This document shows, in pieces, positions 37,303 through 61,284 of a DNA stretch of 64,000 nt. Every line of letters begins with the position of its first letter. The stretch's first letter is position 1. The stretch is from Gemmatimonadota bacterium (GTDB lineage: Bacteria > Gemmatimonadota > Gemmatimonadetes > Palauibacterales > Palauibacteraceae), in the NCBI GenBank assembly GCA_022825725.1, contig JAJDWE010000033.1, positions 87,926-151,925 on the forward strand, given 5' to 3'. Under the pieces are notes generated by a model, which was not told where the DNA came from, did no database searches, and saw only the letters and a list, made by a program, of their open reading frames with translations. Made by a program: the position numbers and the translations under genes.

Positions 37303-37338
37303 AGCGGCCCCGGACGCGCTGACGGAGCCCGAATCGCC

Positions 37339-37719: not shown

Positions 37720-37757
37720 GCCGCGGCCCCCGCTCGCGAGCCGGCGGGGGGGGACGG

Positions 37758-38918: not shown

Positions 38919-39026
38919 GTCAGACCTCGCCTCCGGTGGATCGCGTGGCTCGTCGTCTTCTCCCGCCCACGCTCAAGCTCGGGTCCGATCACGCGTCGGA
39001 GCAAGACGTCATCGCAACGGCGCCTC

Positions 39027-40487
39027 TCAGCGAGCGGGTCTCCACGCGGACTCCTCCGAGGCATCCGCGGGCCCGATCCTGCCCTCCGCCGTCGCGAGCA
39101 GCTCGTCCGGCGAATGAAGACGTCCCCTGGCGAAGACGAACCAGACATCGCGGGCGGCCCGGACATCCTCCAGCGGGTTCTCCCGCACGATCACGAGGTC
39201 CGCGAGCTTCCCTTCCTCGATGCTGCCGAGTTCGTCATCGAGGCCCATCGCGCGCGCCGAATTGAGGGTCGCGATGCGGAACACGTCTGCGGGCGGGACC
39301 CCGGCGCGCGCGAACGCGAGGAGTTCGCGGTGTATGGCGAACGGCGACCAGTACCGCCCCCAGCTCGGGAGGTCCGTGCCGAGCGTGATGAGGTCGCGTC
39401 CACCGCCGTCATGGAACGCCTTCAGCGTCCGGCGCTTGATCGGCGACATCTTCGCGAACGACTCGTTCACGGGCCGGGGCGGCCGGGCCTCGATGATCTC
39501 CCGCATGTACGGCGTCAGGAAGCGGAGTTCGTCCGTCCAGTACTCCGTCATCTCCGGGTCGTGCGGACCCCAGTACCCGTAGATGGAGAGCGTGGCGTCG
39601 AAGTACACGCCGCGGTCGACGTAGAGGTCGATGATGTCGCGGAGCGCGTCCCCCTCGAAATCGTCGAACTCCTGCAGCGAAGCGTAGGCCGAGCGGTCGG
39701 CCGGCATCATGTCGCCCCCGAGGAAGTGCTCGACGCGATCGATGCCCATGAGGATCGCGTCGCGGGGGTTCACGGTGTTCCCGAACCCGGAGTCGAGGTG
39801 GGCGGTGACGGTGAGTCCGTGCTCGTGCGCCTGTTCGATGAGCACGGAGAGCTGCTCCGGCCCGGCCCCCTTTGCCTTGAAACCGGCCGTGCCCTGCGCC
39901 GCCCAGTAATCCACCTCGCGGCGGATCGAGTCGGCGGTCATCACGCCGTCGTCCCAGCCCCGCCGCCAGGATCCGAAATAGGGGCCCGAGTTGAGGAGCC
40001 GGGGACCCCTGCGCTCGCCGCGCTCGATCGCAAGCCGCAGCTCACGCATGCGGACCGGATCCAGCTCGCCGGCCGGGAAGGTCGTCGTCACGCCGTTGGC
40101 GAGGAATAGTTCCGGATAGGCAGCCGTCTCATCGACGCGGCCATCGCCGAACAGATCCACCGCGTAGTGAGCGTGCAGGTCGAAGAACCCCGGAAGGATC
40201 GTCGCTTCCCGGTCGAGGTCGATCGTAATCGTGACGTCGGCCCTGTCCGCCGGAGGGCCGATGGAGACGATCCGCCCGTCGCGAATCGTGATGCCCTCGT
40301 TCTCGACGAGCGTGCCGGTGTGCACGTCCAGCCAGTGTCCCCCCGTGACCACGTAGGTCGCGTTCTCATCCACGAGATCGACGAGGTCCATCACGACCCC
40401 CTCGCATCCGGCAAGGGTCAGGACCAGGCCGCCGATTCCCGCGGCGAGGAACGACCGCCTCCGCTGCATCCGCTGTCTCCGAACCAT
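39027..40487 (-). CDS. Amidohydrolase-superfamily lipoprotein.
   Basis: Signal/lipobox MQRRRSFLAAGIGGLVLTLAGC. DLHAHY (HxH), a later H/D, and LITLGTDLPSW. Start set at an internal ATG; MQRRR at 40469 is equally possible. Confidence 0.7.
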   Translation of the reverse strand: MVRRQRMQRRRSFLAAGIGGLVLTLAGCEGVVMDLVDLVDENATYVVTGGHWLDVHTGTLVENEGITIRDGRIVSIGPPADRADVTITIDLDREATILPGFFDLHAHYAVDLFGDGRVDETAAYPELFLANGVTTTFPAGELDPVRMRELRLAIERGERRGPRLLNSGPYFGSWRRGWDDGVMTADSIRREVDYWAAQGTAGFKAKGAGPEQLSVLIEQAHEHGLTVTAHLDSGFGNTVNPRDAILMGIDRVEHFLGGDMMPADRSAYASLQEFDDFEGDALRDIIDLYVDRGVYFDATLSIYGYWGPHDPEMTEYWTDELRFLTPYMREIIEARPPRPVNESFAKMSPIKRRTLKAFHDGGGRDLITLGTDLPSWGRYWSPFAIHRELLAFARAGVPPADVFRIATLNSARAMGLDDELGSIEEGKLADLVIVRENPLEDVRAARDVWFVFARGRLHSPDELLATAEGRIGPADASEESAWRPAR

Positions 40488-40709
40488 CGATGACCCCTCG
40501 TGGCACACGTGTCGGCCTCGCGTTCACCCGAAACGCGGACGGCCGGAACGTTCAACATAGATGCGCGCGCGTCCCTCCACGACGGACTCGATCCTGTTAC
40601 TGTGAGCCGTCGGCACGCGGCTGCCATCCGAACGGAATCGGAGTTCACACTGCACGAACCGAGCGCGGCGCTCGCCAATCCTCCCAGCGGCCTCTCGGGA
40701 CGCACGTCG

Positions 40710-41870
40710 ATGCGCCCGGCGGCGGTCGTGGCGCTCATCGTCGTCTCGCACACGACGATCGATGCGTACACCGCGTTCCTGCCGCCGCTGCTGCCGCGGA
40801 TCATGGACAACCTCGGCCTCTCGATCACGCTGGCCGCGACGCTGTCGACCGTACTCTCCATTTCGACCGCGCTCCCGCAGCCGGCTTTCGGCTACCTCGC
40901 CGACCGCTTCGGGAGGCGCGCCTTCCTCGCCGCGGGGCCGATCGTGGGGGGCGTGTTCATCTCGCTGCTGGGGATGGCGCCCAGCTACTTCGTCCTCCTC
41001 CTGTTGCTCACGGTGGGAGGACTGGGGTCGGCCGCCTTTCACCCGCCGGGGGCCTCGCTCGTCGCGCGCGCCGGGGAAGGTCGTGGAAGCGGCGTGCGCA
41101 TGTCCATCTTCTCCTTCGGGGGGGCGGCGGGCTTCGCGCTGGGGCCGATCAGCGCGGTCGCCATCGTGGGCCTGTTCGGCCTCTCCGGCCTGTGGATCGC
41201 GATGATCCCGGGGGTCGTGCTCGGGGTCGCTCTCTGGTTCGTCGCGAAGGGTCGGACCCGAGTGGGGCCGGGGACCCCGCCGCCTCCCCCGCTCGAGGTG
41301 CTCCGCAAGCTCAGGGGGCCGCTCGGTCTCGTGTTCGGGATCTCGGTCGTCGGATCCTTCGCGCAGAAGGCGATCCTCACCTTCATCCCGATCATCGCCC
41401 ACCGCGCGGGACAGAGCGAGACGGCGGGCGCCATCGTGCTCAGCGTCTATCTCGGCGCCCAGGGCCTGGGGACGCTCGCCTCCGGCTTCCTCACCGACCG
41501 GCTCAACCGGCAGCACCTCCTGGCCGCGATCAGCGTGCTCGCCGTGCCCACGCACATCCTCGCGTTCACGCTGGCGCCGGCCAGCCCCGCCGCCATCGTG
41601 ATGGCCGTGTTCGCGGGTTTCCTGAACATGGCACTGCTGCCTCCGATCGTCGTCGTGGCGCAGGAGATCCTCCCCTCGGGGACGGCGGTGAGTTCGGGCA
41701 TCGTCATGGGGCTCGCGTGGGCCGTGGGGACGCTGGCGATTCCCGTCGTGGGCGGGTTCGCGGACGCGTTCGGGCCCGTCGCCGCGACCGCGTGGTCGAT
41801 GCCGCTCCTGCTGCTCGGCGCGCTCTTCGCAATGCAGCCCTCGCTTCGCCCATACTGCAGGGCTCAGTGA
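40710..41870 (+). CDS. MFS transporter.
   Basis: 12-TM protein with an MFS motif-A-like ADRFGRR loop. The upstream part of the listed ORF is not hydrophobic, so the start was set at MRPAAVVALIVV. Confidence 0.8.
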   Translation: MRPAAVVALIVVSHTTIDAYTAFLPPLLPRIMDNLGLSITLAATLSTVLSISTALPQPAFGYLADRFGRRAFLAAGPIVGGVFISLLGMAPSYFVLLLLLTVGGLGSAAFHPPGASLVARAGEGRGSGVRMSIFSFGGAAGFALGPISAVAIVGLFGLSGLWIAMIPGVVLGVALWFVAKGRTRVGPGTPPPPPLEVLRKLRGPLGLVFGISVVGSFAQKAILTFIPIIAHRAGQSETAGAIVLSVYLGAQGLGTLASGFLTDRLNRQHLLAAISVLAVPTHILAFTLAPASPAAIVMAVFAGFLNMALLPPIVVVAQEILPSGTAVSSGIVMGLAWAVGTLAIPVVGGFADAFGPVAATAWSMPLLLLGALFAMQPSLRPYCRAQ

Positions 41871-43648
41871 TGAACCGACCGAACCCATCCGTCGTCGTGC
41901 TGGCCAGCGCCGTTGTCGCGTTGGCCGGCACCGTCCTTGCTGCCTGCGGAGGATCGCCGCCGGCCGATCCGGCCGACCTGATCCTCGTGGACGGACGCGT
42001 GATCACGCTCGACGCGGAGAGCCGCGTCGCCGAAGCCGTGGCGGTGCGCGGCGAACATGTCGTGGCCGTCGGCGCGACAGCTGAGATCGAGGTGCTCGCG
42101 GGCCCGGAGACCCGCCGCATCGACCTCGCGGGACGCGCGGTGACGCCGGGGCTCATGGACGCGCACGTCCACTTCGCGAACGGCGGCGCGAACCGCCTGT
42201 ACCGCCTCGACCTCAGCTATCCGAACGTGGAGAACATCGCGGACGTGCAGGGCATGGTCGCGGAGCAGGCCGGACGGCTGTCCGAGGGCGAGTGGGTGCG
42301 CGGCGGCGGCTGGGACGAAGGGAAGCTCGAGGAACTGCGCTACATTTACGCCTCCGACCTGGACGCCGTCGCCGCGGGGCAGCCCGTGTGGCTGGCGCAT
42401 ACGATGGGCCACTACGGCGTGGCCAACTCCCTCGCCCTCGACATGGCGGGCATCACGGCGGACACGCCCGATCCGCCCGGCGGTACGATCGACCGCGATG
42501 CCGCCGGGCAGCCGACCGGCGTCCTCAAGGAGTCCGCCATGGGTCTCGTGACCCGCCTCATCCCGCCGCCCGGACCCGGCGCGCGGCGCGAGGGGATTCG
42601 CGCGCTCGCCGACGCCTTCAACGCCGAGTGCATGACCGGCGGCAAGGACCCCGGGATCGGCCGCCGCACGTGGGAGGCCTATCGGGACGTCCTCGCCGAC
42701 GGCGACCTGACGGTGCGGATCTTCGCCCTGTGGGACGCCCGAGACGGGACGCTGGACGAGGTCCGCGCCTACGCAGACAGCCTCGCGATCTTCACGCGAC
42801 CCTACGAGTCGACCGGGGACGACCGCCTCATCCCCGGCGGCGTCAAGCTGTACAGCGACGGCAGCGGCGGCGCCCGCACGGCCTGGCTGTACCAGGACTG
42901 GAACCGGGAGCGCACCGGGACCGACACGGGCAACCGTGGCTATCCGACGATGGACCCGGACGAACTGCGCCGCCGCTTCCGGGCCTATCACGACGCCGGC
43001 CTCCACGTCTCGATCCACTCCATCGGCGACCGCGCGATCGACTGGACCGTCGACAGCTTCATCGAGGCGCTCGAGGCCACCCCCACCCGCGGGCTCCGGC
43101 ACGGGATCATCCACGCGAACATCCCCACGGATCGGGCCCTCGACGCGATGGCCGAACTCCAGCGGGAATGGCAGGCCGGCTACCCGGAGCCGTCCCCCAC
43201 CTTCACGTGGTGGATCGGCGACACCTACGCCGGAAACTTCGGGCCCGAGCGAACGCTGCGGCTGAATCCGTTCCGCTCCTACCGGGACCGGGGCATGATC
43301 TGGGCGAGCGGATCCGACTTCTTCGTCACCCCCTACCCGGCGCGCTACGGCGTCTGGGCCTCCGTCGCCCGCCAGCCGCTGCTCGGCGTCTACGGGAGCG
43401 ATCCGTACGGCGCCGCCGAGTCCGTCGACGTCGAGACGGCGCTGCGCTCGTTCACGACCTGGGCCGCGCACCAGATGTTCCTCGAAGAGAAAGTCGGGGC
43501 GATCGAACCCGGCAAGTACGCGGATCTGGCGGTCTGGGACCGCGACCCGCTCACCGTCCCGACGATCGAACTGCGGGACATGTCGTGCGAGATGACGGTC
43601 TTCAACGGTGAAGTCGTTTTCGACCGCGCGAGCGTCCCCACACCATGA
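41870..43648 (+). CDS. Amidohydrolase-3 (YtcJ-like) family metal-dependent hydrolase, lipoprotein.
   Basis: Start ATG overlaps the MFS stop (GTGATGA). Lipobox LAGTVLAAC. DAHVHF, HSIGDRAIDW, GSDFFVTPY. It is the C-terminal part of the 1052-aa track ORF, whose N-terminal 460 aa are an out-of-frame artefact over the MFS gene. Confidence 0.8.
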   Translation: MNRPNPSVVVLASAVVALAGTVLAACGGSPPADPADLILVDGRVITLDAESRVAEAVAVRGEHVVAVGATAEIEVLAGPETRRIDLAGRAVTPGLMDAHVHFANGGANRLYRLDLSYPNVENIADVQGMVAEQAGRLSEGEWVRGGGWDEGKLEELRYIYASDLDAVAAGQPVWLAHTMGHYGVANSLALDMAGITADTPDPPGGTIDRDAAGQPTGVLKESAMGLVTRLIPPPGPGARREGIRALADAFNAECMTGGKDPGIGRRTWEAYRDVLADGDLTVRIFALWDARDGTLDEVRAYADSLAIFTRPYESTGDDRLIPGGVKLYSDGSGGARTAWLYQDWNRERTGTDTGNRGYPTMDPDELRRRFRAYHDAGLHVSIHSIGDRAIDWTVDSFIEALEATPTRGLRHGIIHANIPTDRALDAMAELQREWQAGYPEPSPTFTWWIGDTYAGNFGPERTLRLNPFRSYRDRGMIWASGSDFFVTPYPARYGVWASVARQPLLGVYGSDPYGAAESVDVETALRSFTTWAAHQMFLEEKVGAIEPGKYADLAVWDRDPLTVPTIELRDMSCEMTVFNGEVVFDRASVPTP

Positions 43649-43695
43649 GGCGCCCCGGCCGCCGCCGTGTTCTCCCGCCGCGGAAAGGATAACGA

Positions 43696-44229
43696 ATGCA
43701 ACCTCGACCCCTCGCGACGGAACGTCCCATCCCGGAGAGTTGGGAGCCGGACCTCAATGCGACCCTCCTCTACATCGTGCGGGGAGGCGAAATCCTCCTC
43801 ATTCACAAGAAGCGCGGCCTCGGCGCCGGCAAGCTGAACGGGGCCGGGGGCAAGGTCGAACCCGGCGAGAGCACGATCGAGGCCGCGATGCGGGAGTTTC
43901 AGGAGGAACTGCGTGCGCGGCCCGTGGCGCCCCGGAAGGTCGGCGAAGTGGGATTCGAGGTGTTGAGCGGCATGTCCATCCTGATCCACGTCTTCCGGTC
44001 GGACGCGCTGGAGGGAGAGCCGGTCGAGACGAGCGAGGCGACCCCCGTCTGGGCGCCCGTCGACGACATCCCGTACGATCGGATGTGGGAGGACGACCGC
44101 CACTGGCTGCCGCACCTCATCGAGGACCGCCGGTTCGAGGCGTACGCCCGTTTCGAGGGCGATGACATGGTGCACTGCCAAGTGGTCTGTCTCTCCGACA
44201 CCGACAGCTTGCGCCCGGAGTCCCTCTGA
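43696..44229 (+). CDS. NUDIX hydrolase (MutT-like).
   Basis: Nudix box GGKVEPGESTIEAAMREFQEELR. Confidence 0.8.
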   Translation: MQPRPLATERPIPESWEPDLNATLLYIVRGGEILLIHKKRGLGAGKLNGAGGKVEPGESTIEAAMREFQEELRARPVAPRKVGEVGFEVLSGMSILIHVFRSDALEGEPVETSEATPVWAPVDDIPYDRMWEDDRHWLPHLIEDRRFEAYARFEGDDMVHCQVVCLSDTDSLRPESL

Positions 44230-44283
44230 AGCACCCGCGGCTTCCGACCGCCGAGTTTCTTCGCGGCTGAACCGTCCCGCCGC

Positions 44284-45126
44284 TTACTCCCGGCCGGCGG
44301 CCTGGGCTCTCAGGGCGGCGACCCGCTCCTCCGTGGGTGGGTGGGTCGTGAAGAGGGACGTGAGACCGCGACGTCGCCCCGCGAAGGGGTTCACGATCGC
44401 GAGCGAAGCGCCGGCCGGGTTCACCTCCATCGGGATTCGGCGGGCGCCGGATTCGAGGCGCTTCAAGGCGCCGGCCAGACCCATGGGATCGCCTGTGATT
44501 TCGCCCCCGGTGCAGTCCGCCTGAAACTCGTTGCGGCGGCTGATCGCCATCTGGATGATGACGGCCGCCAACGGGGCGACGATGGCCATGACCAGCATGC
44601 CGAGCGGGTTGTCGCCGTCATCGCGTCCGCCGCCGAAGATGAACCCCCAGCGGGCGATGGAGGCGATCATCGCGATGGCGCCCGCCATCGTCGCGGCGAC
44701 GGTGCCGACGAGCATGTGCCGGTGCTTGATGTGGGCAAGTTCGTGCGCGATCACACCGTCCAGTTCGCGGGGTGGGAGCGCGCGCAGGATCCCCTGCGTG
44801 AAGCAGACCACGGCGTGTTCCGGGTTGCGTCCCGTCGCGAAGGCGTTCGGCTGCGGCTGAGGCGAAACGGCCACGACCGGTGCCGGCAGGCCCGCCCGCT
44901 TCCGCAGACGCTCCACCCGGTCGTAGAGGTCCGGCGCCTGCGCCCGGTCGACGATCTGCGCCCGGTACATGCGCAGGACGACCCGGTCGCTGAACCAGTA
45001 CATCCCGAAGTTCATCGCCCCCGAAAGCACGAGGAACAGGATCGCGCCCTGCTGTCCGAACAACATCTGGCCGGCGAACACCAGAAGGAGCGTCAGGCCC
45101 GTCATGAGGCCGAATACCTTGAACAT
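44284..45126 (-). CDS. htpX: Zinc metalloprotease HtpX (M48 family).
   Basis: Four TM helices. HELAHIKHRH (HExxH) and a later NEFQAD Glu ligand. Its length and topology match HtpX. Confidence 0.85.
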   Translation of the reverse strand: MFKVFGLMTGLTLLLVFAGQMLFGQQGAILFLVLSGAMNFGMYWFSDRVVLRMYRAQIVDRAQAPDLYDRVERLRKRAGLPAPVVAVSPQPQPNAFATGRNPEHAVVCFTQGILRALPPRELDGVIAHELAHIKHRHMLVGTVAATMAGAIAMIASIARWGFIFGGGRDDGDNPLGMLVMAIVAPLAAVIIQMAISRRNEFQADCTGGEITGDPMGLAGALKRLESGARRIPMEVNPAGASLAIVNPFAGRRRGLTSLFTTHPPTEERVAALRAQAAGRE

Positions 45127-45169
45127 CCTCTTTATCCCTCCGAGATCCCTCTACGTCTCTCTTGTCGGT

Positions 45170-45889
45170 CTACCGCCCGACCGCCACGCTCCGCGCCTCG
45201 GCGATGTCCGCATCCTCCGCCTGCAGGTCGCAGAACACGAACCCGTCCCGTTCCACGACCTCGCCCCGCCGGACCGGGATCGGCCGGGACAGGATCGGAC
45301 CGTCCCACACGAAGGTATGGAACTCCCCGTTCTCCCCGCATGGATCCACGCCCTCCGGTAGGTCGGCGACGAAAGATGCGTCGAACGAGCGGCCCGCGAA
45401 GGAGGCGTCCAGCACCGCCGGGTTGATGCACACCGCGATGGCCTCGAACCCGTCCCGGATGAAGGAACGCGCAAGCGCCGCCGTGGCTTGCTTCCAGATC
45501 GGAAAGAGACACTCCAGCCCCGAGGCGGCGAGTTGCCGCTCGCGGTACTCGCGGAGGTCCTCCAGGAAGATGTCTCCGAAGGCCACGCGGCGGATTCCGT
45601 CCTCGTAAAGCCGGTCGAAGGCCTCTCCCATCGCCCGTTCATAGATTTCATTCGAGGACTGCGGCGGGACGACGACCTCGACCAGCGGGATGCCGGTCGC
45701 CGCCGCCTGGTCGCGCACGAGCGCGCGCCGCACGCCGTGCATGCTCACCCGGTCGTAGGCGTCGGTCACCGTCGTGATCAGGGTCTCGACCCGCCAGGCT
45801 CCGGACTGCTGAAGCGCGTGCAGGGCCAGCGCGCTGTCCTTGCCGCCGCTGAAGCACATCGCGATGCGTTCGCTCACTCCAGCGCTCAC
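45170..45889 (-). CDS. PP-loop ATP pyrophosphatase of the Dph6/MJ0570 (diphthine-ammonia ligase-like, COG2102) family.
   Basis: CFSGGKDS PP-loop (SGGxDS) at the N-terminus, about 240 aa. ATGA overlap with the upstream gene. Confidence 0.75.
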   Translation of the reverse strand: MSAGVSERIAMCFSGGKDSALALHALQQSGAWRVETLITTVTDAYDRVSMHGVRRALVRDQAAATGIPLVEVVVPPQSSNEIYERAMGEAFDRLYEDGIRRVAFGDIFLEDLREYRERQLAASGLECLFPIWKQATAALARSFIRDGFEAIAVCINPAVLDASFAGRSFDASFVADLPEGVDPCGENGEFHTFVWDGPILSRPIPVRRGEVVERDGFVFCDLQAEDADIAEARSVAVGR

Positions 45890-47391
45890 TCCATGACCGT
45901 CGCCTGGAACGCCCCCGTGAGGACGCGGCCCGCCCGCTTGACCTGCACCCAGATCGTGTACTCGCCCGGCTGCGGGAATGCGAACGGGAACTCGACGACG
46001 CCGGCGGGGGAGGCCGCATCGGTGGGGGACGCCGCGCCGCCGCCGGCCATCGGCGACCCTTCAGGCGCGAGCACCGAGAGCGAGCCCATGGAAATCGTGC
46101 CCGCGGGATGCAGGTGCACGAACACCGCCCCGTCATCCCTCGTGAGCGCGGCGTGGCTCCGCATCCCCATGTAGGGTTCCAGGTCGGCCGGCTTCTCGTC
46201 GGGATCCCAGACCCTGAACGACAGCACCGTCTCCTCGTCGACCCGGAGATCCCGGTCGCCCTGCCACTCGAGGATCGAACCGTCGGCCAGCGGCGCCTCG
46301 GAGCGCGGCCCGGCGAGCGCCATCGGGAGACCCGTCCACGCCGAGTCGTCGGGGTCCGGCAAGAGGCCCGCGCCCTCGCCGACCTCCCCGGGGACCGCGA
46401 GCGCCGCCGCGTCGACGGTCACCGTGTCGACGACCGTCTGCGCGAAGCCGGACTCCTGGACGATGTCGCCGTAGATGCGGTACTCGCCCGGCGGCAGGTC
46501 CGGCCACGGGACGCGGAAGGTGGACGGGTCCACGGGGACGGGGTGCACGTGGGCGAATGCGTCCATGCCCGGCGCCCCGACCACGAACATGTGCATGAGC
46601 TTGCCGTGGTCCGGCACCAGCGGGCTCCAGTCCCGGCCCCGCCACGCGGGATCGGTGATCGCGATCTCCAAGGCGGGCGTCCCTCCGTCGCGCACGATCG
46701 CGCCCTCCACGGCGAGGCGCTCGAAGATCCCGCTGCGGACATCCCGGTCCACCGCCTCCCACCAGGCGTTCCCCAGGTAGAGGAGGCCCGCGACTCCCAC
46801 CGCGGTGAGGGCCATGGCGATCCGGGCGCGGCGACGCCGCCCGTGACCCGCCGCCTCCCCCGCCGGAATCTGGCTCTCCCGCACCGCGGCCCCCGTGATC
46901 GAAACCACGCCTGCGACCAGGAGCAGCGCGAGCGCGGCCAGGATCCAGCCGAGACCCGGCGGCAGGTCGCGCACTCCGAGCATGACCGAGGTCACGGGGA
47001 CCGAGACCTCGCCGCTCCCCCGAGCCCCCTCCACCGCGACCTCGACCCGGTACGCGCCCACCGTCATGAGCCACAGCTCCGCGGCGTACAGTTCGGGATC
47101 GCCCGCCACGGGCACGGCGACGTCGGGGGGCGGCGCGCCGCCCTCCGGGGCCGCGTCCCAGCGCACGGGGCGCACGGTCACGCGGTCCGCGCCGCCGCCC
47201 GACACGCGGACGGAGACCTCCGCCAGTCCAGGGATGACCTCCGGCGGACGGATGACGACGGAGACGGGGTACGGCCCCGCCTCGCCGCTGAAGAAGACGT
47301 TCTTGCTCCCGACGTGCCCCGTCGCCACGACGTACAGCCCGGCCACGAACGCGGCTGTCCGCGCGAGGCGGGCGGCCCGGCCGGGCCTCAC
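45886..47391 (-). CDS. Hypothetical membrane-anchored protein with two tandem His/Met-rich beta-sandwich (YtkA/FixH-like) domains, possibly metal-binding.
   Basis: The likely start is GTG at 47391, overlapping the stop of the upstream gene (GTGA). The Arg-rich 81 aa upstream in the track ORF overlap the previous gene and were rejected. Three TM segments. The repeated pattern M.M...F.H.HP...PGEY.I is seen in KLMHMFVVGAPGMDAFAHVHP...PGEYRIYG and YMGMRSHAALTRDDGAVFVHLHPAG...PGEYTIWV. Confidence 0.5.
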   Translation of the reverse strand: MRPGRAARLARTAAFVAGLYVVATGHVGSKNVFFSGEAGPYPVSVVIRPPEVIPGLAEVSVRVSGGGADRVTVRPVRWDAAPEGGAPPPDVAVPVAGDPELYAAELWLMTVGAYRVEVAVEGARGSGEVSVPVTSVMLGVRDLPPGLGWILAALALLLVAGVVSITGAAVRESQIPAGEAAGHGRRRRARIAMALTAVGVAGLLYLGNAWWEAVDRDVRSGIFERLAVEGAIVRDGGTPALEIAITDPAWRGRDWSPLVPDHGKLMHMFVVGAPGMDAFAHVHPVPVDPSTFRVPWPDLPPGEYRIYGDIVQESGFAQTVVDTVTVDAAALAVPGEVGEGAGLLPDPDDSAWTGLPMALAGPRSEAPLADGSILEWQGDRDLRVDEETVLSFRVWDPDEKPADLEPYMGMRSHAALTRDDGAVFVHLHPAGTISMGSLSVLAPEGSPMAGGGAASPTDAASPAGVVEFPFAFPQPGEYTIWVQVKRAGRVLTGAFQATVME

Positions 47392-48611
47392 CGGCGGACG
47401 CGCAGCCACCAGTTCCCCAGCCACAGGCCCGAGCGGGCCGAGACGAACGCGATCGGCAGCGCCCACCACGCCGCGGCGACAAACCGCGATGCGGAGAACT
47501 CGCCTGCGAGGTACGGGCCGCCGTGCCAGAACACGTTCTGCCAGGCGCCGGGCGCCGCCGTGTAGCCCCACGTGTCGCCCTGGAAGAAGTAGTTCCGTGC
47601 CCCCTCGGAGAGCATGAAGTCGGCGAAAACCCACTGGATCGCGCCGAAGAGGGCCACGAAGGCGACGCCCCCCACGGCCGCGATCCGCCAGTCCGCCGAT
47701 CTCCGCTCAGGCGCCTCGCCCGGCGCCGAATGTCGCCGCAGCAGGAGGTCGATCACGATCGCCGGCGCGAACAGGAGGAGCGGGAACTCGGGCGCCACCA
47801 TGTGGGTGACCGGACGCAGGATCGGCGCGAGCATCGGCTCCGCCGGGAAGAGCGGCAACACCCACATCATCGCGAGCGAGACGCCGGTATAGACGAGCGC
47901 CGCGCACGTCGCCGGCCACCGCATCTGCCCGGCCCTCCCGATGGCGAAGAGGAGGACGGGAAAGACCGCCGCCATGATGAGGTGGAACGTCGCCCCGTGC
48001 ATCTGGTTCGGGAACGTGTACTCCAGCAGCAGCACGGAAAGCGACAGGATCAGCATCGCGGCGCTGAACACGTAGGCCCCCGCGAGCTTGCGCCGGCCCG
48101 CCTCCGAGGCCCGGTTGTGCCACGACAGCGCCATCAGCAGAGCGCCCACCTGGATCGCATAGATCCCAAGCGCCAGGACCACGTGGGGCGGGCTCAGGAT
48201 CTCGACGTCGAGCCCGTACGCGTTGTGCCACCAGTCGTCGAGCGGCGCGGACGTGAGCATGGCGATCGCGCCCCAGATCGCCACCCAGGCCCCGAGCGGC
48301 GCCCGGAAACCCCACATGCGGACGGAGCGTCCGACCTCCGCATCCGTCCCCGAGAACGTCGTCTTCAGCGCGAGCCATCCGCACGACAGCCCCGCCGCCA
48401 GCCCGCCCGCGTAGACGAGCAGGTGGGCGGGCGTGAAGAGGGTGTCCCGCCCGATCGTCCGGTGCCACGAGATGTCCCAGGTGATGCCCACGATCACGGC
48501 CGCCGAGGCGAAGAGGATCGCGGTCAGAGGCCACGGGATGCTGTCCGCCGACTCCGCCGCGCCCTCGCGCCTCGCGAGGACAGAGGCAGGTGCTGCTGTC
48601 GATTCCATCGC
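47388..48611 (-). CDS. Hypothetical polytopic integral membrane protein (about 10 TM, Trp-rich).
   Basis: Start chosen at MESTAAPASVL, before the first TM (PWPLTAILFASAAVIVGITW). There are several conserved-looking W/H residues in the loops (WHRT, DDWWHNAYG). No family is recognised. Confidence 0.5.
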   Translation of the reverse strand, partial: AMESTAAPASVLARREGAAESADSIPWPLTAILFASAAVIVGITWDISWHRTIGRDTLFTPAHLLVYAGGLAAGLSCGWLALKTTFSGTDAEVGRSVRMWGFRAPLGAWVAIWGAIAMLTSAPLDDWWHNAYGLDVEILSPPHVVLALGIYAIQVGALLMALSWHNRASEAGRRKLAGAYVFSAAMLILSLSVLLLEYTFPNQMHGATFHLIMAAVFPVLLFAIGRAGQMRWPATCAALVYTGVSLAMMWVLPLFPAEPMLAPILRPVTHMVAPEFPLLLFAPAIVIDLLLRRHSAPGEAPERRSADWRIAAVGGVAFVALFGAIQWVFADFMLSEGARNYFFQGDTWGYTAAPGAWQNVFWHGGPYLAGEFSASRFVAAAWWALPIAFVSARSGLWLGNWWLRVRR

Positions 48612-48727
48612 TTTCCCCCGAAATCCTTCCTCCCGCAGCCGGCTACTCAATGGGCTGCGGGCTATCGACACATCCGATCCACCGCCCGAAGATAGGTCTG
48701 GTTCAACCGAGATGCAGGAGATTCGAC

Positions 48728-50227
48728 GTGAGACCAGAGAGATTCCGGCACCCGCGCCCGGGGTGGCCCGCGAGCGCGGTCGCCGCAGCGGCCCTCGCCC
48801 TTGGCATCGTCGGCTGCGCCGGGCCGGACCCGACATCGGACCCCGCCGCCTCCGACTCGTCCCCTGCCTCGCTTACGGCGGAGCAGATCGACGCGATTCA
48901 CGCCATCGCCGCGTCCCCGATCGAGGCGGGTCGCGCCGCGGGCATGTCGATCGCCGTCGTGCGCGGGACGGACACGCTCCTGATCGAGGAGTTCGGTCAC
49001 GCCGACCTCGAACTCGGCGTGCTCACGCCCCCGGACGCCGTCTACGAGGTCGGGTCCGTGACCAAGCAGTTCACCGCGGCCGCCGTTCTCCTCCTGCGGG
49101 AGGAAGGGAAGCTCTCCCTCGACGACCCGCTCACGAGGTGGCTGCCCGACTACCCCGTCGGGGACCGGACCGTCACCGTCCGGCAACTCCTGGACCACAC
49201 CTCGGGCATCAAGGGCTACACCGAGATGGAGCATCTCTGGGCGGAACTCGCTCCCCTCGAACTCCCGCGGGACACGCTCGTCACGCTCTTCTCCGCCGAG
49301 CCCTTCGATTTCGAACCCGGCACGGCGATGACCTACAACAACTCGGGCTACTTCCTCGCCGGACTCGTCATCGAGGCGGCGAGCGGGATGAGCTACGAGG
49401 ACTTCGTCGAGGGGCGCCTCTTCGGCGAGGCCGGGATGGAGAACTCCCGCTACTGCCACAAGGACGAACTCACCCCGAACCGCGCGAAGGGGTACGAGCC
49501 GGGCGACGACGGGCTGCACCCGGCGCCCTACCTCGACCACCAGTGGCCCTACGCCGCGGGATCGCTCTGCTCCACGGTGCGCGACCTCGTCGCCTGGAAT
49601 CAGGCCCTCCACGGGGATGGGGAGGGCGGCGAGATCCTGACTCCCGAGAGCTATCGCCTGATGATCACGCCCGAGCCCCTGCTGGACGGCACGGATCTGC
49701 GCTACGCGAAGGGTCTCGCGATCACGGATCGGGATGGGACCCCGCGGATCGGACATGGCGGCGGGATCTTCGGCTACGTCACCGACCTCCGCTACGTCCC
49801 ATCCGAGGATCTGTCCATCGCGGTGCTCATCAACACAGCCGGAGGCGCCTCGCCCGGGGGGATCGCGGGAGAGATCGAAGACGTGGTGCTCGGCGCGCCG
49901 GCGGAGCCCGTCGCGGTGCCTTTCGAAGGCGATCCCTCACCCTACGCGGGCCGCTACGAGGGTCCCGCCCGCGGCCAGCGGATCACCGCGACGGTGGCGG
50001 CCGAGGACGGACAACTGACGATCGACACGGGAGGCGGCGAGCCGGCCACCCTCTCGTGGCTTGGCGGCGACGAATTCGCGGATGGGCGAACCCTTTATCG
50101 GTCCATCCGCGGAGGAGATGCCGGAGGCGCCGAAGCCGCCGGAGGTGCCGGCGCTGCCGCCCCCTTCAGTGAACTTCGGATGGACGTCGTTTCGGGACAC
50201 TTCGTCCTGCGGAGGATGACCCCATGA
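48728..50227 (+). CDS. Class C beta-lactamase / penicillin-binding-protein-like serine hydrolase, lipoprotein.
   Basis: GTG start giving VRPERFRHPRPGWPASAVAAAALALGIVGC (lipobox). The SVTKQF (SxxK) active-site motif and YNNSGY (YxN) are present. Confidence 0.8.
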   Translation: MRPERFRHPRPGWPASAVAAAALALGIVGCAGPDPTSDPAASDSSPASLTAEQIDAIHAIAASPIEAGRAAGMSIAVVRGTDTLLIEEFGHADLELGVLTPPDAVYEVGSVTKQFTAAAVLLLREEGKLSLDDPLTRWLPDYPVGDRTVTVRQLLDHTSGIKGYTEMEHLWAELAPLELPRDTLVTLFSAEPFDFEPGTAMTYNNSGYFLAGLVIEAASGMSYEDFVEGRLFGEAGMENSRYCHKDELTPNRAKGYEPGDDGLHPAPYLDHQWPYAAGSLCSTVRDLVAWNQALHGDGEGGEILTPESYRLMITPEPLLDGTDLRYAKGLAITDRDGTPRIGHGGGIFGYVTDLRYVPSEDLSIAVLINTAGGASPGGIAGEIEDVVLGAPAEPVAVPFEGDPSPYAGRYEGPARGQRITATVAAEDGQLTIDTGGGEPATLSWLGGDEFADGRTLYRSIRGGDAGGAEAAGGAGAAAPFSELRMDVVSGHFVLRRMTP

Positions 50228-52062
50228 CCACGCATCGAACCCCTGCTCGCCGCGCTCGCAGCGTGTTCCCCGCGGGGCTGGTCCCGGCCGTCACGGCCCT
50301 TGCCGCCGCGTCGGCCACATCCGCCGCTCCCGCGTCCGCCCAGGAGGTCGCGGGGCTCGTCGGGGCGGAATCGAGCGAACTCGCACCGGTCGTGGAGCGC
50401 TACTCCGCGGACCGCGTCGCCCTCGGCCGCCGCTGGACCGTCTCCTACTCTCCCGAGCGCAACGCGCGCTTCAACGAGTTCTTCTCCGGCTGGCAGCGGG
50501 AGATCGACGCGCTTGATTTTGAGGCGCTGAGTCTCGAGGGACGCGTGGACTACGTCCTCCTCCTCAACGAACTGCGCTACCAGCTGGACCTGCTGACGCG
50601 CGAGGCGGGGCTCGCCGCCGAGATGGACGGATTCATCTCCTTCACCTCGCTCATCGTGGAACTGGAGGAGCGCCGCCGGCGTCGCGAGCCGGTGGAGTCG
50701 GAGGCGGCCGCCGCCCGCCTCGCGGAGCTCCCCGCCGAGATCGAGGCCGTCCGAGGCGAAGTCGAGGCCCGGCTCGAGGGCGGGGAAGACGTCTCGCGGA
50801 TCGTCGCGCTGCGGGCGGTGACGGCGCTCGCCGAGCGCACGCGGCTCCTCGAAGACTGGTACGAGCATTACGCCGGCTACGATCCCGTCTTCACCTGGTG
50901 GAACGAGGACCCGTACGCCCGCGCCAGGGCCGCGCTCGACGGCTACGCGACCTTCCTGCGCGAGTCGGTCATCGGCTACCGCGAGGGCGAGGACGAACCC
51001 ATCGTCGGCGACCCGATCGGCGCGGAGGGTCTCGCCGCGGACCTGCGCCGCGAGATGATCCCCTACAGCCCTGCGGAGCTCATCGCGATCGCCGAGCGCG
51101 AGTACGCGTGGTGCGAGGAGCGGATGATCGAGGCCTCCCGCGAACTCGGCTACGGGGACGACTGGCGGGCGGCCCTCGAGTACGTGAAGACGCTGCACCG
51201 TGACCCCGGCGACCAGCCGCAGATGATCCGCGAACTCGCCGACGAGGCGCTCGCATTCGTCACGGAGCGCGACCTCGTCACCGTCCCCCCGCTCGCCGAC
51301 GAGATCTGGCGCATCGAGATGATGTCGCCCGAGCGGCAGAAAGTGTCGCCCTTCTTCCTCGGCGGAGAGGTGATCCAGGTCTCCTTCCCCACCGACGGGA
51401 TGGAGCACGAGTACAAGCTCATGAGCATGCGGGGGAACAACGAACACTTCTCCCGCGCGACGGTTCACCACGAACTCATTCCGGGACACCACCTGCAGGG
51501 GTTCATGACGAGCCGCTTCAACTCCCACCGGCGCGCGTTCTCCACCCCGTTCTGGGGCGAGGGGTGGGCGCTCTACTGGGAGATGCTGCTCTGGGATCTC
51601 GACTTCCCGTCCACCCCCGAGGATCGCATCGGCATGCTCTTCTGGCGCATGCACCGCACGGCCCGGATCATCTTCTCCCTCTCCTTCCACCTCGAGCGCA
51701 TGACCCCGCAGGAGGCGATCGATTTCCTCGTCGAGCGCGTGGGGCACGAGCGCGCGAACGCCGAGGCGGAGGTGCGGCGGAGCTTCAACGGCTCCTACTC
51801 CCCGCTGTACCAGGTCGCCTACATGATCGGCGGGCTCCAGTTCCGGGCCCTGCACGAACAACTCGTGCAGTCGGGGGAGATAACGAACCGCGCCTTCCAC
51901 GACGCGATCCTCAAGGGCGGCCGGATGCCGGTCGAGATGGTGCGCGCGCGCCTGCTCGGCGAGGCGCCGGCGAGGGACTTCGAATCGGCGTGGCGCTTCC
52001 AGGGCGACCCGCTGCGCCGTACGACGTCCGAGGAACCGGCCGTGCCGGAGACCGCACACTGA
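50224..52062 (+). CDS. DUF885 family protein (putative secreted metallopeptidase-like).
   Basis: Signal peptide. HHELIPGHHLQ (HExxPGHH) is the DUF885 hallmark. Confidence 0.75.
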   Translation: MTTHRTPARRARSVFPAGLVPAVTALAAASATSAAPASAQEVAGLVGAESSELAPVVERYSADRVALGRRWTVSYSPERNARFNEFFSGWQREIDALDFEALSLEGRVDYVLLLNELRYQLDLLTREAGLAAEMDGFISFTSLIVELEERRRRREPVESEAAAARLAELPAEIEAVRGEVEARLEGGEDVSRIVALRAVTALAERTRLLEDWYEHYAGYDPVFTWWNEDPYARARAALDGYATFLRESVIGYREGEDEPIVGDPIGAEGLAADLRREMIPYSPAELIAIAEREYAWCEERMIEASRELGYGDDWRAALEYVKTLHRDPGDQPQMIRELADEALAFVTERDLVTVPPLADEIWRIEMMSPERQKVSPFFLGGEVIQVSFPTDGMEHEYKLMSMRGNNEHFSRATVHHELIPGHHLQGFMTSRFNSHRRAFSTPFWGEGWALYWEMLLWDLDFPSTPEDRIGMLFWRMHRTARIIFSLSFHLERMTPQEAIDFLVERVGHERANAEAEVRRSFNGSYSPLYQVAYMIGGLQFRALHEQLVQSGEITNRAFHDAILKGGRMPVEMVRARLLGEAPARDFESAWRFQGDPLRRTTSEEPAVPETAH

Positions 52063-52081
52063 CGCGCTGAAAGGAAGACAC

Positions 52082-53998
52082 ATGGCTCGCGACCCGCAGT
52101 TGACGGCGATCACCGGTATCATCCTCGCTCTGGGCGCCGCGGCTGGCGGCGGGAGCGAGCTTCACGCGCAGAACAGCGGCGAGGACGGCGTCCTCTCGGT
52201 CGACCAGCTCCTCTCCATCGAGTCCGTCGTCGGAGGCGCACCCGCCTGGTCCCCGGACGGCTCCGCGATCCTGTTCGAGTCCGGGCTCTCGGGCGGTCTC
52301 ATGACCCTGCCTCCCGAGGGCGGCTTCCCCACGCGCGTGCCCGTGGACATGGGCAGCTCCGGCCACTTCCTCTCCTCCCAGATGCCGGGCTGGTCCCCGT
52401 CCGGGACGTGGATCTCCTACGTGTCGGACAAGAGCGGCGCCCCCGAGATCTGGCTCTGGTCGACGCGGGACGGGGTCGACGTCCAGCTCACCGACCTCGG
52501 CGCGCGCATAAACTCCATGCGCTGGTCCCCTGACGAACGCTCCATCGTCTTCGCCGGAGACCGCTACGGGAACTACGACATCTGGAAGGTGGACGTCGCC
52601 ACCCGCCGCGTGGACCGTCTCACCGAGGACAAGCGCTACGAGGTCTTCCCGACCTGGACGCCGGACTCACGCCACATCCTCTACGTCCGCCTCGACGAGG
52701 CGTGGGAGGACCACGACGTGATCGAGGTCGATGCCGCCGGCGACAGCCCGCGGACGGTGATCGAGGACCGCGACTTCTTCGACTACGGGGCGGGCGCCAC
52801 GTTCGGGTATCCGAGCGTATCCCCGGACGGCAGCCAGATCCTCTTCCGCTCCCACCGGAGCGGCTGGATCAACTATTGGCTCGCGCCCCGGGATGGAGGC
52901 GACCCCCGCCCGGTCGCCCCAGCGGAGGCCGACCAGAGCGCTGCGGCGTGGTCCCCCGATGGACGCTGGATCGCCTACACCGAGAACCATAACGGGCACC
53001 ACGACCTGCGCGTCGTGTCGGCGGACGGCGGCGAGCCGCGGGTGCTCGTGTCGCCGAAAGGCGGCGTCGCGTCGAGCCCCTCGTGGTCTCCGGACGGCCA
53101 GGCGATCGCGTACCTGCAGGAAGACCTGCTGAGCCCGCGCGACCTCCACGTCGTCTCACGCGAGAACGGGAGCAGCCGGCGGCTCACCTCCTCCATGCCC
53201 GCCGGCAACTTCGGCGCCCGGCTCGTCGCGCCGGAGAAGATCCATTACGAAAGCACGGATGGATACTCGATCCCCGCCTACCTCTACCGGCCGCCGGGGG
53301 CCGCGGCCGGCGACGACCTGCCCGGCGTGATGTGGATCCACGGGGGTCCCACGTCGCAGTTCCACGACACCTTCCAGCAGCACGTGCAGTTCTTCGTCCA
53401 GAGGGGATACGTCGTCCTCCTGCCCAACATCCGCGGGAGTTCGGGCTACGGGAAGGCGTTCGCCGACGCGAACAACGGCTGCTGGGGGCACTGCGACCTG
53501 GAGGATGTCGTCGCGGGGGCGGACTACCTGCGGGCGCTCCCAGGGGTCGACCCGGAGCGGATCGGGATCACGGGGACGAGCTACGGCGGCGTGATGAGCA
53601 TGTACGCGGTGGCTTTCGCGCCGGACGCCTTCCGCGCGGCGATCCCGGGATCGGGATACACGGATTGGGTCCACTTCCAGCACGGCGAGAACGAACTCCG
53701 GCACATCAAGCTGCTCGACCACGAACTCGGCCCGTTCGAGACGAGCGAGGACGTGTGGAGCCACAGTTCGTCGATCTCGCACGTCGCCGACGTCTCGACG
53801 CCGATCCTCCTCGTGCATGGCGTCGGCCGCTATCCGGGCTCGGACCAGTCCGAGATCTTCGCGCGGGCGCTGGAGAACTACTACAAGCCCTTCCAGTACA
53901 AGACGTACCCGAACGAGAACTACTACGTGTACGGGAAGGCGAACCGCCGGCAGATGCTCCTCGACATGCTCGACTTCTTCGAGCAGTTCCTGAAGTGA
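52082..53998 (+). CDS. S9 family serine peptidase (prolyl oligopeptidase / acylaminoacyl-peptidase-like) with N-terminal TolB-like beta-propeller.
   Basis: WSPDG repeats in the N-terminal half. The C-terminal alpha/beta hydrolase carries GTSYGG (GxSxGG nucleophile), and the Asp/His region is DWVHFQHG...LLVHG. Confidence 0.85.
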   Translation: MARDPQLTAITGIILALGAAAGGGSELHAQNSGEDGVLSVDQLLSIESVVGGAPAWSPDGSAILFESGLSGGLMTLPPEGGFPTRVPVDMGSSGHFLSSQMPGWSPSGTWISYVSDKSGAPEIWLWSTRDGVDVQLTDLGARINSMRWSPDERSIVFAGDRYGNYDIWKVDVATRRVDRLTEDKRYEVFPTWTPDSRHILYVRLDEAWEDHDVIEVDAAGDSPRTVIEDRDFFDYGAGATFGYPSVSPDGSQILFRSHRSGWINYWLAPRDGGDPRPVAPAEADQSAAAWSPDGRWIAYTENHNGHHDLRVVSADGGEPRVLVSPKGGVASSPSWSPDGQAIAYLQEDLLSPRDLHVVSRENGSSRRLTSSMPAGNFGARLVAPEKIHYESTDGYSIPAYLYRPPGAAAGDDLPGVMWIHGGPTSQFHDTFQQHVQFFVQRGYVVLLPNIRGSSGYGKAFADANNGCWGHCDLEDVVAGADYLRALPGVDPERIGITGTSYGGVMSMYAVAFAPDAFRAAIPGSGYTDWVHFQHGENELRHIKLLDHELGPFETSEDVWSHSSSISHVADVSTPILLVHGVGRYPGSDQSEIFARALENYYKPFQYKTYPNENYYVYGKANRRQMLLDMLDFFEQFLK

Positions 53999-54666
53999 CG
54001 GTCGCGGGGCACGCCGCGCGTTTCCTCGCGGCGACTCTCATCCTCGTGGGCTGCGAGCGCGTCGAGCCCGTCCCATCCTCCGATGTCGGGGCGGAGGCCA
54101 TCGCTCTCCGCGCCGCGACGGAGGCCGGCCCGGTGGAAGTGGCCGTGGAGACGAGCCAGGGGGAGTTCGTCATCGCCGTCCACCGCGAGTGGGCGCCGCT
54201 GGGGGCCGAGCGGTTTCTCACTCTCGTCGAATCCGGCTATTACGACGACGCCCGTTTCCACCGCGTCGTCCCCGACTTCATCGTGCAGTGGGGACTCGCC
54301 GGCGACCCCGCCCTCACCGCCGAGTGGATGAACGCCTACATCCCCGACGACCCCGTCGCCGCCTCCAACACCCGCGGCCGCATCGCCTTCGCCTTCACCG
54401 ACCCCGGGACCCGCGCGACCCAGGTGTATATCAGCCTCGTGGACAACGTGCGCCTCGACTCGACGGGATTCGCCCCCTTCGGCGAGATCGTGAGCGGGAT
54501 GGACGTCGTGGATGCGCTGTACTCGGGCTACGGAGAGAACTCGGGCGGCGGCCTGCGGCGAGGCGACCAGAGCCGCATCGTCACCGAGGGCAACAGCTAC
54601 CTCGACCGCGAATACCCGCTCCTGGATCGCCTCATCAGAGCTGCTCCTCGCGGCGCCCCGAAGTAG
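53995..54666 (+). CDS. Cyclophilin-type peptidyl-prolyl cis-trans isomerase (lipoprotein/secreted).
   Basis: GTG start overlapping the S9 stop. Lipobox LILVGC. FHRVVPDFIVQWG and MNAYIPDD...FAPFGEIVSGMDVVD are cyclophilin motifs. Confidence 0.8.
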   Translation: MTVAGHAARFLAATLILVGCERVEPVPSSDVGAEAIALRAATEAGPVEVAVETSQGEFVIAVHREWAPLGAERFLTLVESGYYDDARFHRVVPDFIVQWGLAGDPALTAEWMNAYIPDDPVAASNTRGRIAFAFTDPGTRATQVYISLVDNVRLDSTGFAPFGEIVSGMDVVDALYSGYGENSGGGLRRGDQSRIVTEGNSYLDREYPLLDRLIRAAPRGAPK

Positions 54667-55483
54667 ACCGTTCCTGCTCGGCCTCCTGCCTCGCTCTGTC
54701 ACGGTCGTACAGTTCCTCGCGAGTCAGGTTGTCCGACATTCGCAGTCCCACCCCGCGGGCATCGAAATCCTCGAATACCAACTGTGACCTCTGCAGGCGG
54801 ATCAGTTCGTCGGCGCCTGCTGCCCCCAACGCGAGTAGCTCGTCCAACTCGTCGCGCGTGAAAGGCGCGCCCTCCGCCGTTCCTTGCACCTCGACCAGGC
54901 GTCCGTCCTCGAGGTGGACGAAATTGAAGTCGACGTCCGCCGCGGCGTCCTCCACGTACTCCAGGTCGAGCCTCGCCTCGCCGTCCACCATGCCGGCGCT
55001 GATCGCGGCGACCCACTGGCGGAGCGGGCTGGCCTGGAGAACACCGTCCGACACCAGGCGCTGGAAGGCCATCTCGAGTGCCACACAGGCCCCCGTGATC
55101 GAGGCCGTGCGGGTGCCGCCGTCGGCGACGAGGACGTCGCAGTCCACCGTCACGGTTCGTTCGCCGAGCGCCGTGAGGTCGACCGCGGCCCGTAGCGAGC
55201 GGCCGATGAGGCGCTGGATTTCCTGGGTGCGGCCTCTCGCGCCGCGCCGCTCCCGGCGGGTGCGCTCGGCCGTGGCCCGGGGCAGCATGGCGTACTCGCC
55301 CGTGACCCAGCCGCCGCGGCCCTCGCGCCACGGCGGGACGCTTTCGTCGACGGAGGCCGTGCAAAGCACGCGCGTCATCCCCATCGTGATCGTGCAGGAT
55401 CCCTCGGCGAAGGGGGCCGTTCCCGTCTCCAGGGTCGTGGGTCGCAGGGCGTCCAGCGCCCGGCCGTGTGGACGTGCCGGCAT
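54635..55483 (-). CDS. rph: Ribonuclease PH.
   Basis: Collinear with E. coli Rph (GTAPFAEGSCTITMGMTRVLCTASV...TQEIQRLIGRSLRAAVDL...DCDVLVADGGTRTASITGACVAL), plus a charged C-terminal extension of about 40 aa. Confidence 0.9.
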   Translation of the reverse strand: MPARPHGRALDALRPTTLETGTAPFAEGSCTITMGMTRVLCTASVDESVPPWREGRGGWVTGEYAMLPRATAERTRRERRGARGRTQEIQRLIGRSLRAAVDLTALGERTVTVDCDVLVADGGTRTASITGACVALEMAFQRLVSDGVLQASPLRQWVAAISAGMVDGEARLDLEYVEDAAADVDFNFVHLEDGRLVEVQGTAEGAPFTRDELDELLALGAAGADELIRLQRSQLVFEDFDARGVGLRMSDNLTREELYDRDRARQEAEQERSTSGRREEQL

Positions 55484-55521
55484 GGGGCAGCCTCGGTCGA
55501 AGGTCGAAAAGGGAAAAACCG

Positions 55522-57198: not shown

Positions 57199-57247
57199 CA
57201 GCCGCGGAAGATCAGCGGCCACGTATCGACAGATCGGGAGCCAACCC

Positions 57248-61251: not shown

Positions 61252-61284
61252 TTCGTGCAGTTCACCCCTATCGAAGGATCCGAC

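Follow-up and report, generated by a model that had tools for sequence, protein, structure and literature searches.

The window analysed here, 64,000 nucleotides of a Gemmatimonadota bacterium (contig JAJDWE010000033.1, positions 87,926 to 151,925 of the forward strand), contains a two-gene module, here termed g1-g2, that encodes a polytopic membrane protein and an exported partner protein. The first four transmembrane (TM) helices of g1 are very probably a remote homologue of the metal-binding core of subunit C (PmoC or AmoC) of the copper membrane monooxygenases (CuMMOs). Current models assign the likely active site to PmoC, in particulate methane monooxygenase (pMMO) as well as in ammonia monooxygenase. 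The g1-g2 pair is most likely a periplasm-facing copper membrane complex, and the best overall explanation, to which we assign a probability of about 45%, is that g1 would perform an O2-dependent oxidation within this complex.

Similarity of g1 to CuMMO subunit C

The g1 gene (47388..48608, minus strand) encodes a protein of 406 amino acids, and its AlphaFold2 (AF2) model (pLDDT 80.8, pTM 0.85) contains ten TM helices, the number already counted in an initial annotation of this region. That annotation had found no recognisable family for the protein; our searches returned AmoC/PmoC matches that are weak, reproducible and exclusive. The AmoC/PmoC models were the sole matches of g1 in Pfam and NCBIfam scans, all of them sub-threshold (E 0.0026, 0.001 and 0.0039), and the family-model match is restricted to profile positions 125-214. 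In a phmmer search of PDB sequences with g1, AmoC chains gave three matches (E 3.2e-5 to 7e-5); apart from these, PsaJ alone came up, with E 0.2. A divergent member of the family, P0349, independently matched eleven distinct PmoC/AmoC sequences and nothing else; its match to PmoC of Methylococcus capsulatus (7s4h/7ev9 chain C) has E 6.8e-5.

For profile comparisons, five reference C subunits were extracted from the plasmid sequences of Nitrosomonas, Methylomagnum, Methylocystis, Rhodococcus and Mycolicibacterium. The alignment of the g1 family with these real CuMMO subunits by hhalign (E 3e-5, probability 73%) extends over 107 columns that cover both metal sites. When a hidden Markov model (HMM) of the five C subunits was run against 2707 local sequences, 192 members of the g1 family came out on top and the first unrelated sequence had E 0.65. 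The aligned stretch, residues 45-162 of g1 and 136-257 of AmoC, includes both PmoC copper sites.

Putative copper ligands of g1

The ligands of the CuC site of PmoC are Asp156, His160 and His173, those of the CuD site are Asn227, His231 and His245, and Arg165 belongs to the second shell (PMC12576850). In g1, the CuC-like triad D45/H49/H62 together with R54 is encoded at 48423..48479 on the minus strand (residues 44-62, WDISWHRTIGRDTLFTPAH), and the CuD-like triad D124/H128/H142 at 48183..48245 on the same strand (residues 122-142, PLDDWWHNAYGLDVEILSPPH). D45, H49 and H62 align to the three CuC ligands with identical spacing of +4 and +13 (Asp-x3-His-x12-His), and R54 is the equivalent of Arg165. 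D124, H128 and H142 align to the three CuD ligands, again with the same spacing (+4 and +14, that is x3 and x13); Asn is replaced by Asp. The acidic residue that follows the first CuD ligand is common to both proteins. By sequence register g1 thus has counterparts of all CuC and CuD ligands, with the single Asn to Asp change, and the numbering of 1yew_C supports this register.

The ligand positions are 95-100% conserved among about 230-265 relatives. For the CuC-like site, D45 is found in 226/226, H49 in 215/226, R54 in 215/228 and H62 in 228/228 sequences; for the CuD-like site the counts are 256/260 (D124), 247/260 (H128) and 255/265 (H142). The ligands are found in the AF2 model where TM1-TM4 end, and the distribution of positively charged residues puts these ends on the periplasmic side. 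The metal sites of PmoC are on the periplasmic side as well.

In some g1 subfamilies, correlated substitutions of the ligands occur in two patterns, D-E-x-H / D-x-Q-Q (H49E, H128Q and H142Q) and D-Q-Q-H (H49Q and R54Q). The ligand-variant members are P0288, P0314, P0322 and P0335, and P0302, P0313, P0338 and P0350. In a test for co-loss, the partner of an H49E/H128Q/H142Q variant (L099:213-3022) retains the N-terminal His and all His and Met residues of both repeats described below; loss of one set of sites thus does not have to go with loss of the other.

The exported partner protein g2

The g2 gene (45886..47391, minus strand) encodes a protein of 501 amino acids and starts with a GTG at 47391, within the GTGA that closes g1. 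According to its AF2 model (pLDDT 77.5), a signal peptide is followed by a β-sandwich (D1), a TM hairpin and two further domains (D2 and D3), and all three domains are placed in the periplasm. The initial annotation had described the protein as membrane-anchored; more precisely, it has a signal peptide and an internal TM hairpin between D1 and D2.

The signal peptide (residues 1-25, ending in VVATG) and His26 are encoded at 47314..47391 on the minus strand, with the consensus HVG[ST]xNVFF at the start of the mature part. His26 occurs in 117/117 relatives, each time directly after the G or A of a signal-peptidase-like A/T-x-G/A site. Because the residue is invariant and G or A always occupies position -1, His26 is predicted to be the N-terminus of the mature protein. 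In histidine-brace proteins (the CuB site of PmoB, CopC, YcnI, LPMO), a mature N-terminal His coordinates copper by its amine and imidazole.

Domain D1 (residues 26/27-135; 46987..47313, minus strand) is a YtkA/CtaK-like β-sandwich with invariant W107 and M109. The Pfam family YtkA (PF13115) matches residues 44-118 with 17.1 bits (E 0.0089; cut-off 25.9). The same family matches 12/25 relatives with a best E of 2.3e-6, and one relative, P0195, carries a precomputed PF13115 domain. The fold of D1 resembles that of the copper-resistance protein CrdA of Helicobacter pylori (9ll2_A; Foldseek TMt 0.64, hmmsearch E 0.13). YtkA, now CtaK, is a copper chaperone domain for assembly of the CuA site and is also found in the importer YcnJ (PMC13344008). 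The TM hairpin (residues ~145-210; 46762..46959, minus strand) consists of AF2 helices 145-172 and 183-221, connected by an Arg-rich cytoplasmic loop, RRRRAR.

D2 (residues 225-330; 46402..46719, minus strand) and D3 (residues 345-501; 45889..46359, minus strand) are two copies of a repeat. D2 has invariant D261, H262, H267, H281-x-H283-P and E313, and each of its four His residues is found in 121/121 relatives. The invariant residues of D3, E405, Y407, M408, M410, H413 and H426-x-H428-P, are each present in 118-119 of 119 relatives. The two domains align by hhalign with E 1e-4 and share the invariant pattern H...HxHP...PGxY, which makes them a true tandem repeat. The twin repeat of the initial annotation is thus confirmed. 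Its assignment of YtkA-like β-sandwiches holds for the protein; the Pfam match falls on D1 and not on the two repeats as had been proposed. No Pfam family was found for the His-rich domains D2 and D3. The Foldseek list for g2 contains Ig-like sandwiches and CrdA, most of the entries being generic multi-Ig proteins. Taken with the putative ligands of g1, these features support the earlier suggestion of a metal-binding-like envelope module, now for g1 and g2 jointly.

Distribution of the g1-g2 module

Synteny was studied in 80 genome loci with a g1 alignment and in seven more obtained by exact-protein look-up; all four proteins were placed by tblastn. The two genes are adjacent, co-oriented and usually overlapping in 86/87 loci, and the one exception is a contig that ends right after g1. 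The pairing is kept in divergent members of the family too. The loci belong to at least four phyla, Gemmatimonadota (Palauibacter, Longimicrobiales, Gemmatimonadales), Acidobacteriota (Vicinamibacterales, Thermoanaerobaculia, Blastocatellia), Eisenbacteria and Methylomirabilota. No third conserved gene was found by clustering of flanking open reading frames (ORFs) and a Pfam census, no family being present in more than 6 of the 115 nearest neighbours. The functional unit is almost certainly the two-gene module g1-g2.

The g1 family is large: at 50% identity it falls into 2536 clusters, and its members are found in at least 586 species-level genomes. Among the listed homologues, all that have a source name are annotated as hypothetical protein, and precomputed Pfam domains are lacking throughout. 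In the literature searched, neither the g1 family nor any PmoC relative outside CuMMO operons was described.

Several neighbours are confined to particular lineages or loci. A Fe-containing alcohol dehydrogenase (PF00465) adjoins g1 upstream in seven loci of Thermoanaerobaculia/Acidobacteriota (L025, L029, L034, L036, L047, L057, L072) and is divergent from g1 in six of them; this would be suggestive of a monooxygenase product, yet the arrangement is confined to the Thermoanaerobaculia clade. A divergent g1-g2 pair (L097:1-8268; P0351 and a partner of 515 amino acids) is located amid a polyketide synthase module, an S41 peptidase and a phosphopantetheinyl transferase. A ZIP-family transporter gene is convergent with g2 in three Vicinamibacterales-like loci (L004-L006:8823-10053), and one locus (L007, 734-1456) has a gene for a Cu-oxidase_4 protein (YfiH-type) at a distance of 5 kb upstream; neither is conserved across loci.

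Comparison with known copper systems

PmoC and AmoC (PF04896; 7s4h_C, 9leg_C) resemble g1 in their four-helix core, where two adjacent triads are located at the periplasmic ends of the helices. They also have in common with g1 the motif WH..I.RDT.FTP.H, the Arg of the second shell and the acidic residue that follows the first CuD ligand. In both cases the gene is followed by one for a periplasmic protein with a TM hairpin. Unlike PmoC, g1 is devoid of the PmoC N-terminal helices, has Asp in place of Asn227 and carries six extra TM helices; these helices, TM5-10, have no sequence relatives of known function.

The CuMMO operons consist of three genes in the order xmoCAB or ABC, whereas 86/87 loci of our sample, compared with real operons (L089, L091, L092), have two genes only. 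A homologue of the A subunit (PmoA, Pfam AMO) was not detected: a profile of g1 residues 167-406 gave nothing relevant against PDB and Pfam, and hhalign of the C-terminal 240 residues with real PmoA gave a probability of 0.8%. We rejected the C-terminal half as PmoA and keep a fusion in 'C then A' order as a structural lead only. The comparison of g2 with three real B subunits by hhalign gave a probability of 0.3%, domain-wise comparisons were not significant either, and HxHP alone aligns; g2 was likewise rejected as a PmoB homologue. Since no PmoA or PmoB homologue accompanies it at a detectable level, g1-g2 is not a CuMMO. The hosts of g1-g2, Gemmatimonadota and Acidobacteriota, are not known as methane or ammonia oxidisers.

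Among the plasmid records, orphan amoC/pmoC copies are carried by a conjugative plasmid of Nitrosomonas and by plasmids of Methylocystis (L088:4099-4914, L090:4120-4893). The Methylomagnum plasmid carries a CuMMO operon in A-B-C order (L089:2070-4881), of the pXMO-like type.

PmoB and AmoB have the same topology of signal peptide, periplasmic sandwich, TM hairpin and periplasmic sandwich as g2. The first residue after the predicted cleavage is His in both (A|HGE in PmoB, G/A|HVG in g2), and both contain HxHP motifs, which in PmoB serve the CuB site. The CuB site of PmoB is formed by the amine and side chain of His33 together with His137 and His139 (PMC12576850). Unlike PmoB, g2 has three domains that are Ig/YtkA-like rather than demonstrably cupredoxin, and its HxHP motifs sit in other domains than the N-terminal His. 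The resemblance is an analogy and not membership.

Also comparable to g2 are YtkA/CtaK, the YcnJ (CopC-CopD-YtkA) and YcnI proteins of Bacillus subtilis and H. pylori CrdA, as D1 has a sub-threshold match to Pfam YtkA and resembles CrdA in fold. In YcnJ/YcnI-type systems, too, an extracytoplasmic, membrane-tethered β-sandwich, which in g2 would bind copper, stands beside a polytopic membrane protein, and the N-terminal His that is a copper ligand in CopC and YcnI has its likeness in the predicted N-terminal His26. The g1-g2 module differs from the YcnJ system in that the membrane partner is PmoC-like and not CopD, g2 has two extra His-rich domains, and no ycnK-like regulator or cta/sco genes are nearby.

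Possible functions of the g1-g2 module

The metal of g1-g2 is probably copper. In the mechanism that we propose, g1 and g2 would form one membrane complex with copper bound on its periplasmic face. The g2 protein could capture copper through a His-brace-like site at its N-terminus and through its His/Met sites, and hand it, perhaps with electrons, to the PmoC-type site in g1. The latter may then oxidise a membrane-soluble substrate in an O2-dependent reaction with quinol-derived electrons, as in pMMO. We lean slightly, and tentatively, towards an enzyme rather than a copper relay because g1 is related only to a catalytic subunit, the first- and second-shell residues are kept, and such an enzyme would require no partner besides quinol. 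That g1 has kept the Arg of the second shell and the acidic residue suggests that the chemistry of the PmoC site persists as well.

Several observations weigh against this explanation. All scores of g1 are below the curated cut-offs (17.6 bits for PF04896 with a cut-off of 26.7, 18.6 for TIGR03078 with 280.6, and 16.5 for NF041641 with 319), and the g1 family profile matches PDB sequences only with E 0.0074, in the first motif only and more weakly than single sequences do. Some g1 subfamilies swap ligands (H49E/Q, H128Q, H142Q), and the partner sites stay intact. No conserved neighbour among the 115 nearest indicates a substrate or a pathway, and A- and B-type subunits are missing, as described above. 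In g2, there is no conserved Cys, hence a type-1 or CuA electron-transfer site is not expected, and with its His/Met sandwiches g2 looks more like a copper-trafficking protein than an enzyme.

The strongest alternative, almost as likely as an enzyme, is that g1-g2 is a relay for copper acquisition or delivery, similar to CopC/CopD, YcnI/YcnJ and CtaK, without catalysis. The N-terminal His and the His/Met sandwiches of g2 would take up periplasmic Cu(II)/Cu(I) and pass it to the Asp/His sites at the mouth of g1, which could import it or insert it into membrane cuproenzymes, for example heme-copper oxidases or NosZ. The family and fold links of g2 are solely to copper-trafficking or copper-resistance proteins (YtkA/CtaK, CopC and CrdA). 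An N-terminal His with Met/His clusters and without Cys, as in g2, is typical of periplasmic copper carriers such as CopC, YcnI, PCuAC and CusF. The module stands alone, with no metabolic genes beside it, which would suit a housekeeping role; g1 also has an invariant Asp287 in the middle of the membrane, in TM8. However, the sole detectable relative of g1 is catalytic, and neither CopD nor any transporter family is matched. No conserved chain of Met, Cys or His passes through the TM helices of g1 as a copper path, in 83 loci the pair is not syntenic with cta, sco, nos or cop genes, and the retained second-shell Arg and acidic residue of PmoC point to preserved site chemistry.

An oxidising g1 in a copper complex, the explanation that we prefer, has a more specific and, in our view, unlikely form. 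The pair could be a membrane-bound copper oxygenase or oxidase of two subunits, sister or ancestral to the CuMMOs. In this case g1 would join a PmoC-type catalytic core to PmoA-like helices, with C preceding A as in pmoCAB, and g2 would take the role of PmoB by means of YtkA-type domains.

It is improbable that the likeness to PmoC is convergent or too weak to be meaningful, and that g1-g2 binds Zn, Fe, Mn or no metal and has a structural, sensing or transport role. This would account for the sub-threshold scores, the limited profile match and the subfamilies in which Glu or Gln replaces His, and for the outcome of the structure searches with g1, in which Foldseek gave nothing at E <= 0.001 and PmoC was not returned. 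The PmoC site reportedly once held zinc in a crystal structure. Against convergence, two independent queries match C subunits only, in register over ~100 residues and with nine shared invariant polar residues; the C-subunit HMM splits the family from other sequences perfectly, and the relatives of the g2 domains are copper proteins.

The Dph6-related ATPase and HtpX

Downstream of g2, on the minus strand, lie g3 (45170..45889), which encodes a Dph6-related PP-loop ATP pyrophosphatase, and htpX (44284..45126), which encodes an M48 zinc metalloprotease and starts 43 nucleotides past the g3 stop; a gap of 44 bp had been given before, and the position of htpX just downstream is unchanged. The placement of g3 in the Dph6/MJ0570 family by the initial annotation was correct: the protein matches PF01902 with 117.4 bits (E 8.5e-34; cut-off 23.2), contains SGGKDS at residues 13-18 and also carries PF28410. 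The UniRef name is 'Dph6-related ATP pyrophosphatase', the family has >8000 matches and is highly conserved, and the best PDB match is 3rjz (E 1.7e-15). These features are those of the N-type ATP pyrophosphatases Dph6/MJ0570/PF0828. Unlike Dph6 itself, g3 stays far under the TIGR03679 equivalog cut-off (86.2 bits, cut-off 197.3), and hence is not an equivalog of Dph6 (diphthine-ammonia ligase). Bacteria are not known to have diphthamide. The htpX product matches Peptidase_M48 (PF01435, E 2.4e-33), has the HExxH motif in the form HELAH, and reaches 328.9 bits (E 2.2e-98) with NF002826, under the equivalog cut-off of 369. In short, g3 is an ordinary bacterial Dph6-related PP-loop protein and htpX a standard M48 protease.

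Both genes follow g1-g2 only in six Candidatus Palauibacter loci, with g1 identity of at least 81%. They are missing in the nearest non-Palauibacter relatives (Longimicrobiales, g1 69-74% identical) and in 70+ other loci, and there is no linkage of g3 with g1-g2 outside this one genus. The initial annotation had treated a lack of this gene order in relatives as grounds for giving up its proposal of an ATPase coupled to the envelope module, and had recommended a look at the neighbourhoods of the g3 family; homologues of g3 that are 69-72% identical in other phyla stand in unrelated neighbourhoods. A single system in which g1, g2 and the ATPase (perhaps with HtpX) couple ATP-dependent amidation or adenylation to an envelope module is thus very improbable, and as a three-gene operon it was rejected because of the synteny: the start and stop codons of g1, g2 and g3 overlap or nearly do, htpX follows closely and the four-gene order is kept within Palauibacter, but the arrangement is absent outside the genus, and periplasmic metal sites are predicted for g1 and g2 while g3 is a cytoplasmic protein. 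The ATPase and HtpX may be co-transcribed passengers, in Palauibacter only.

Gene calls and surrounding region

The four-gene minus-strand layout of the initial annotation agrees with our ORF analysis: g1, g2, g3 and htpX are genuine ORFs, all with high G+C content at third codon positions (GC3). We place the start of g1 at the ATG at 48608-48606, which is preceded by a GGAGGAAGGA stretch; the end of the gene had been given correctly, and its start, previously put at 48611, is corrected by 3 nucleotides. The linkage of the genes by overlapping start and stop codons was also described properly, with GTGA at the g1/g2 junction and possibly at g2/g3, where a GTG at 45889 that overlaps the g2 stop is a possible start of g3; most relatives start 4-10 codons later. 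Mechanically derived longest ORFs (47388..48836, 482 amino acids, and 45886..47634, 582 amino acids) overshoot the real starts of g1 and g2, because stop codons are scarce at the G+C content of the region, ~70%. Many long antisense ORFs across the region, with low GC3, are artefacts of rare stops too.

A scan of the whole 64 kb window (1..64000) with Rfam gave no family at the gathering score. Between 44000 and 49000, no sigma-70-like promoter was found, and the single terminator-like site lies inside htpX. The flanks (37758..43648 and 48590..57198) contain mixed genes, none of them copper-related. They include a molybdopterin oxidoreductase of the sulfite-oxidase type, three amidohydrolases, an MFS transporter, a NUDIX hydrolase, a DUF885 protein, an S9 peptidase, RNase PH and a β-lactamase-fold lipoprotein that is divergent from g1.

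Implications

Recognition of the two-gene unit removes a misleading link of bacterial Dph6-like ATPases to envelope metal biology. As judged by alignment, both copper-ligand triads of PmoC and its second-shell Arg have been kept in g1-g2, although the architecture, with two genes, is another one. The g1 family is a natural comparison set for the roles that the CuC and CuD sites play and a candidate evolutionary source of CuMMOs. In abundant soil and sponge-associated phyla that have been little studied, it may represent a novel copper enzyme or pathway of copper handling. If the pair is indeed sister to the CuMMOs, it would constitute a new class of membrane copper enzymes, widespread in soil and marine Gemmatimonadota and Acidobacteriota, and would open a view onto the origin of methane and ammonia monooxygenases.

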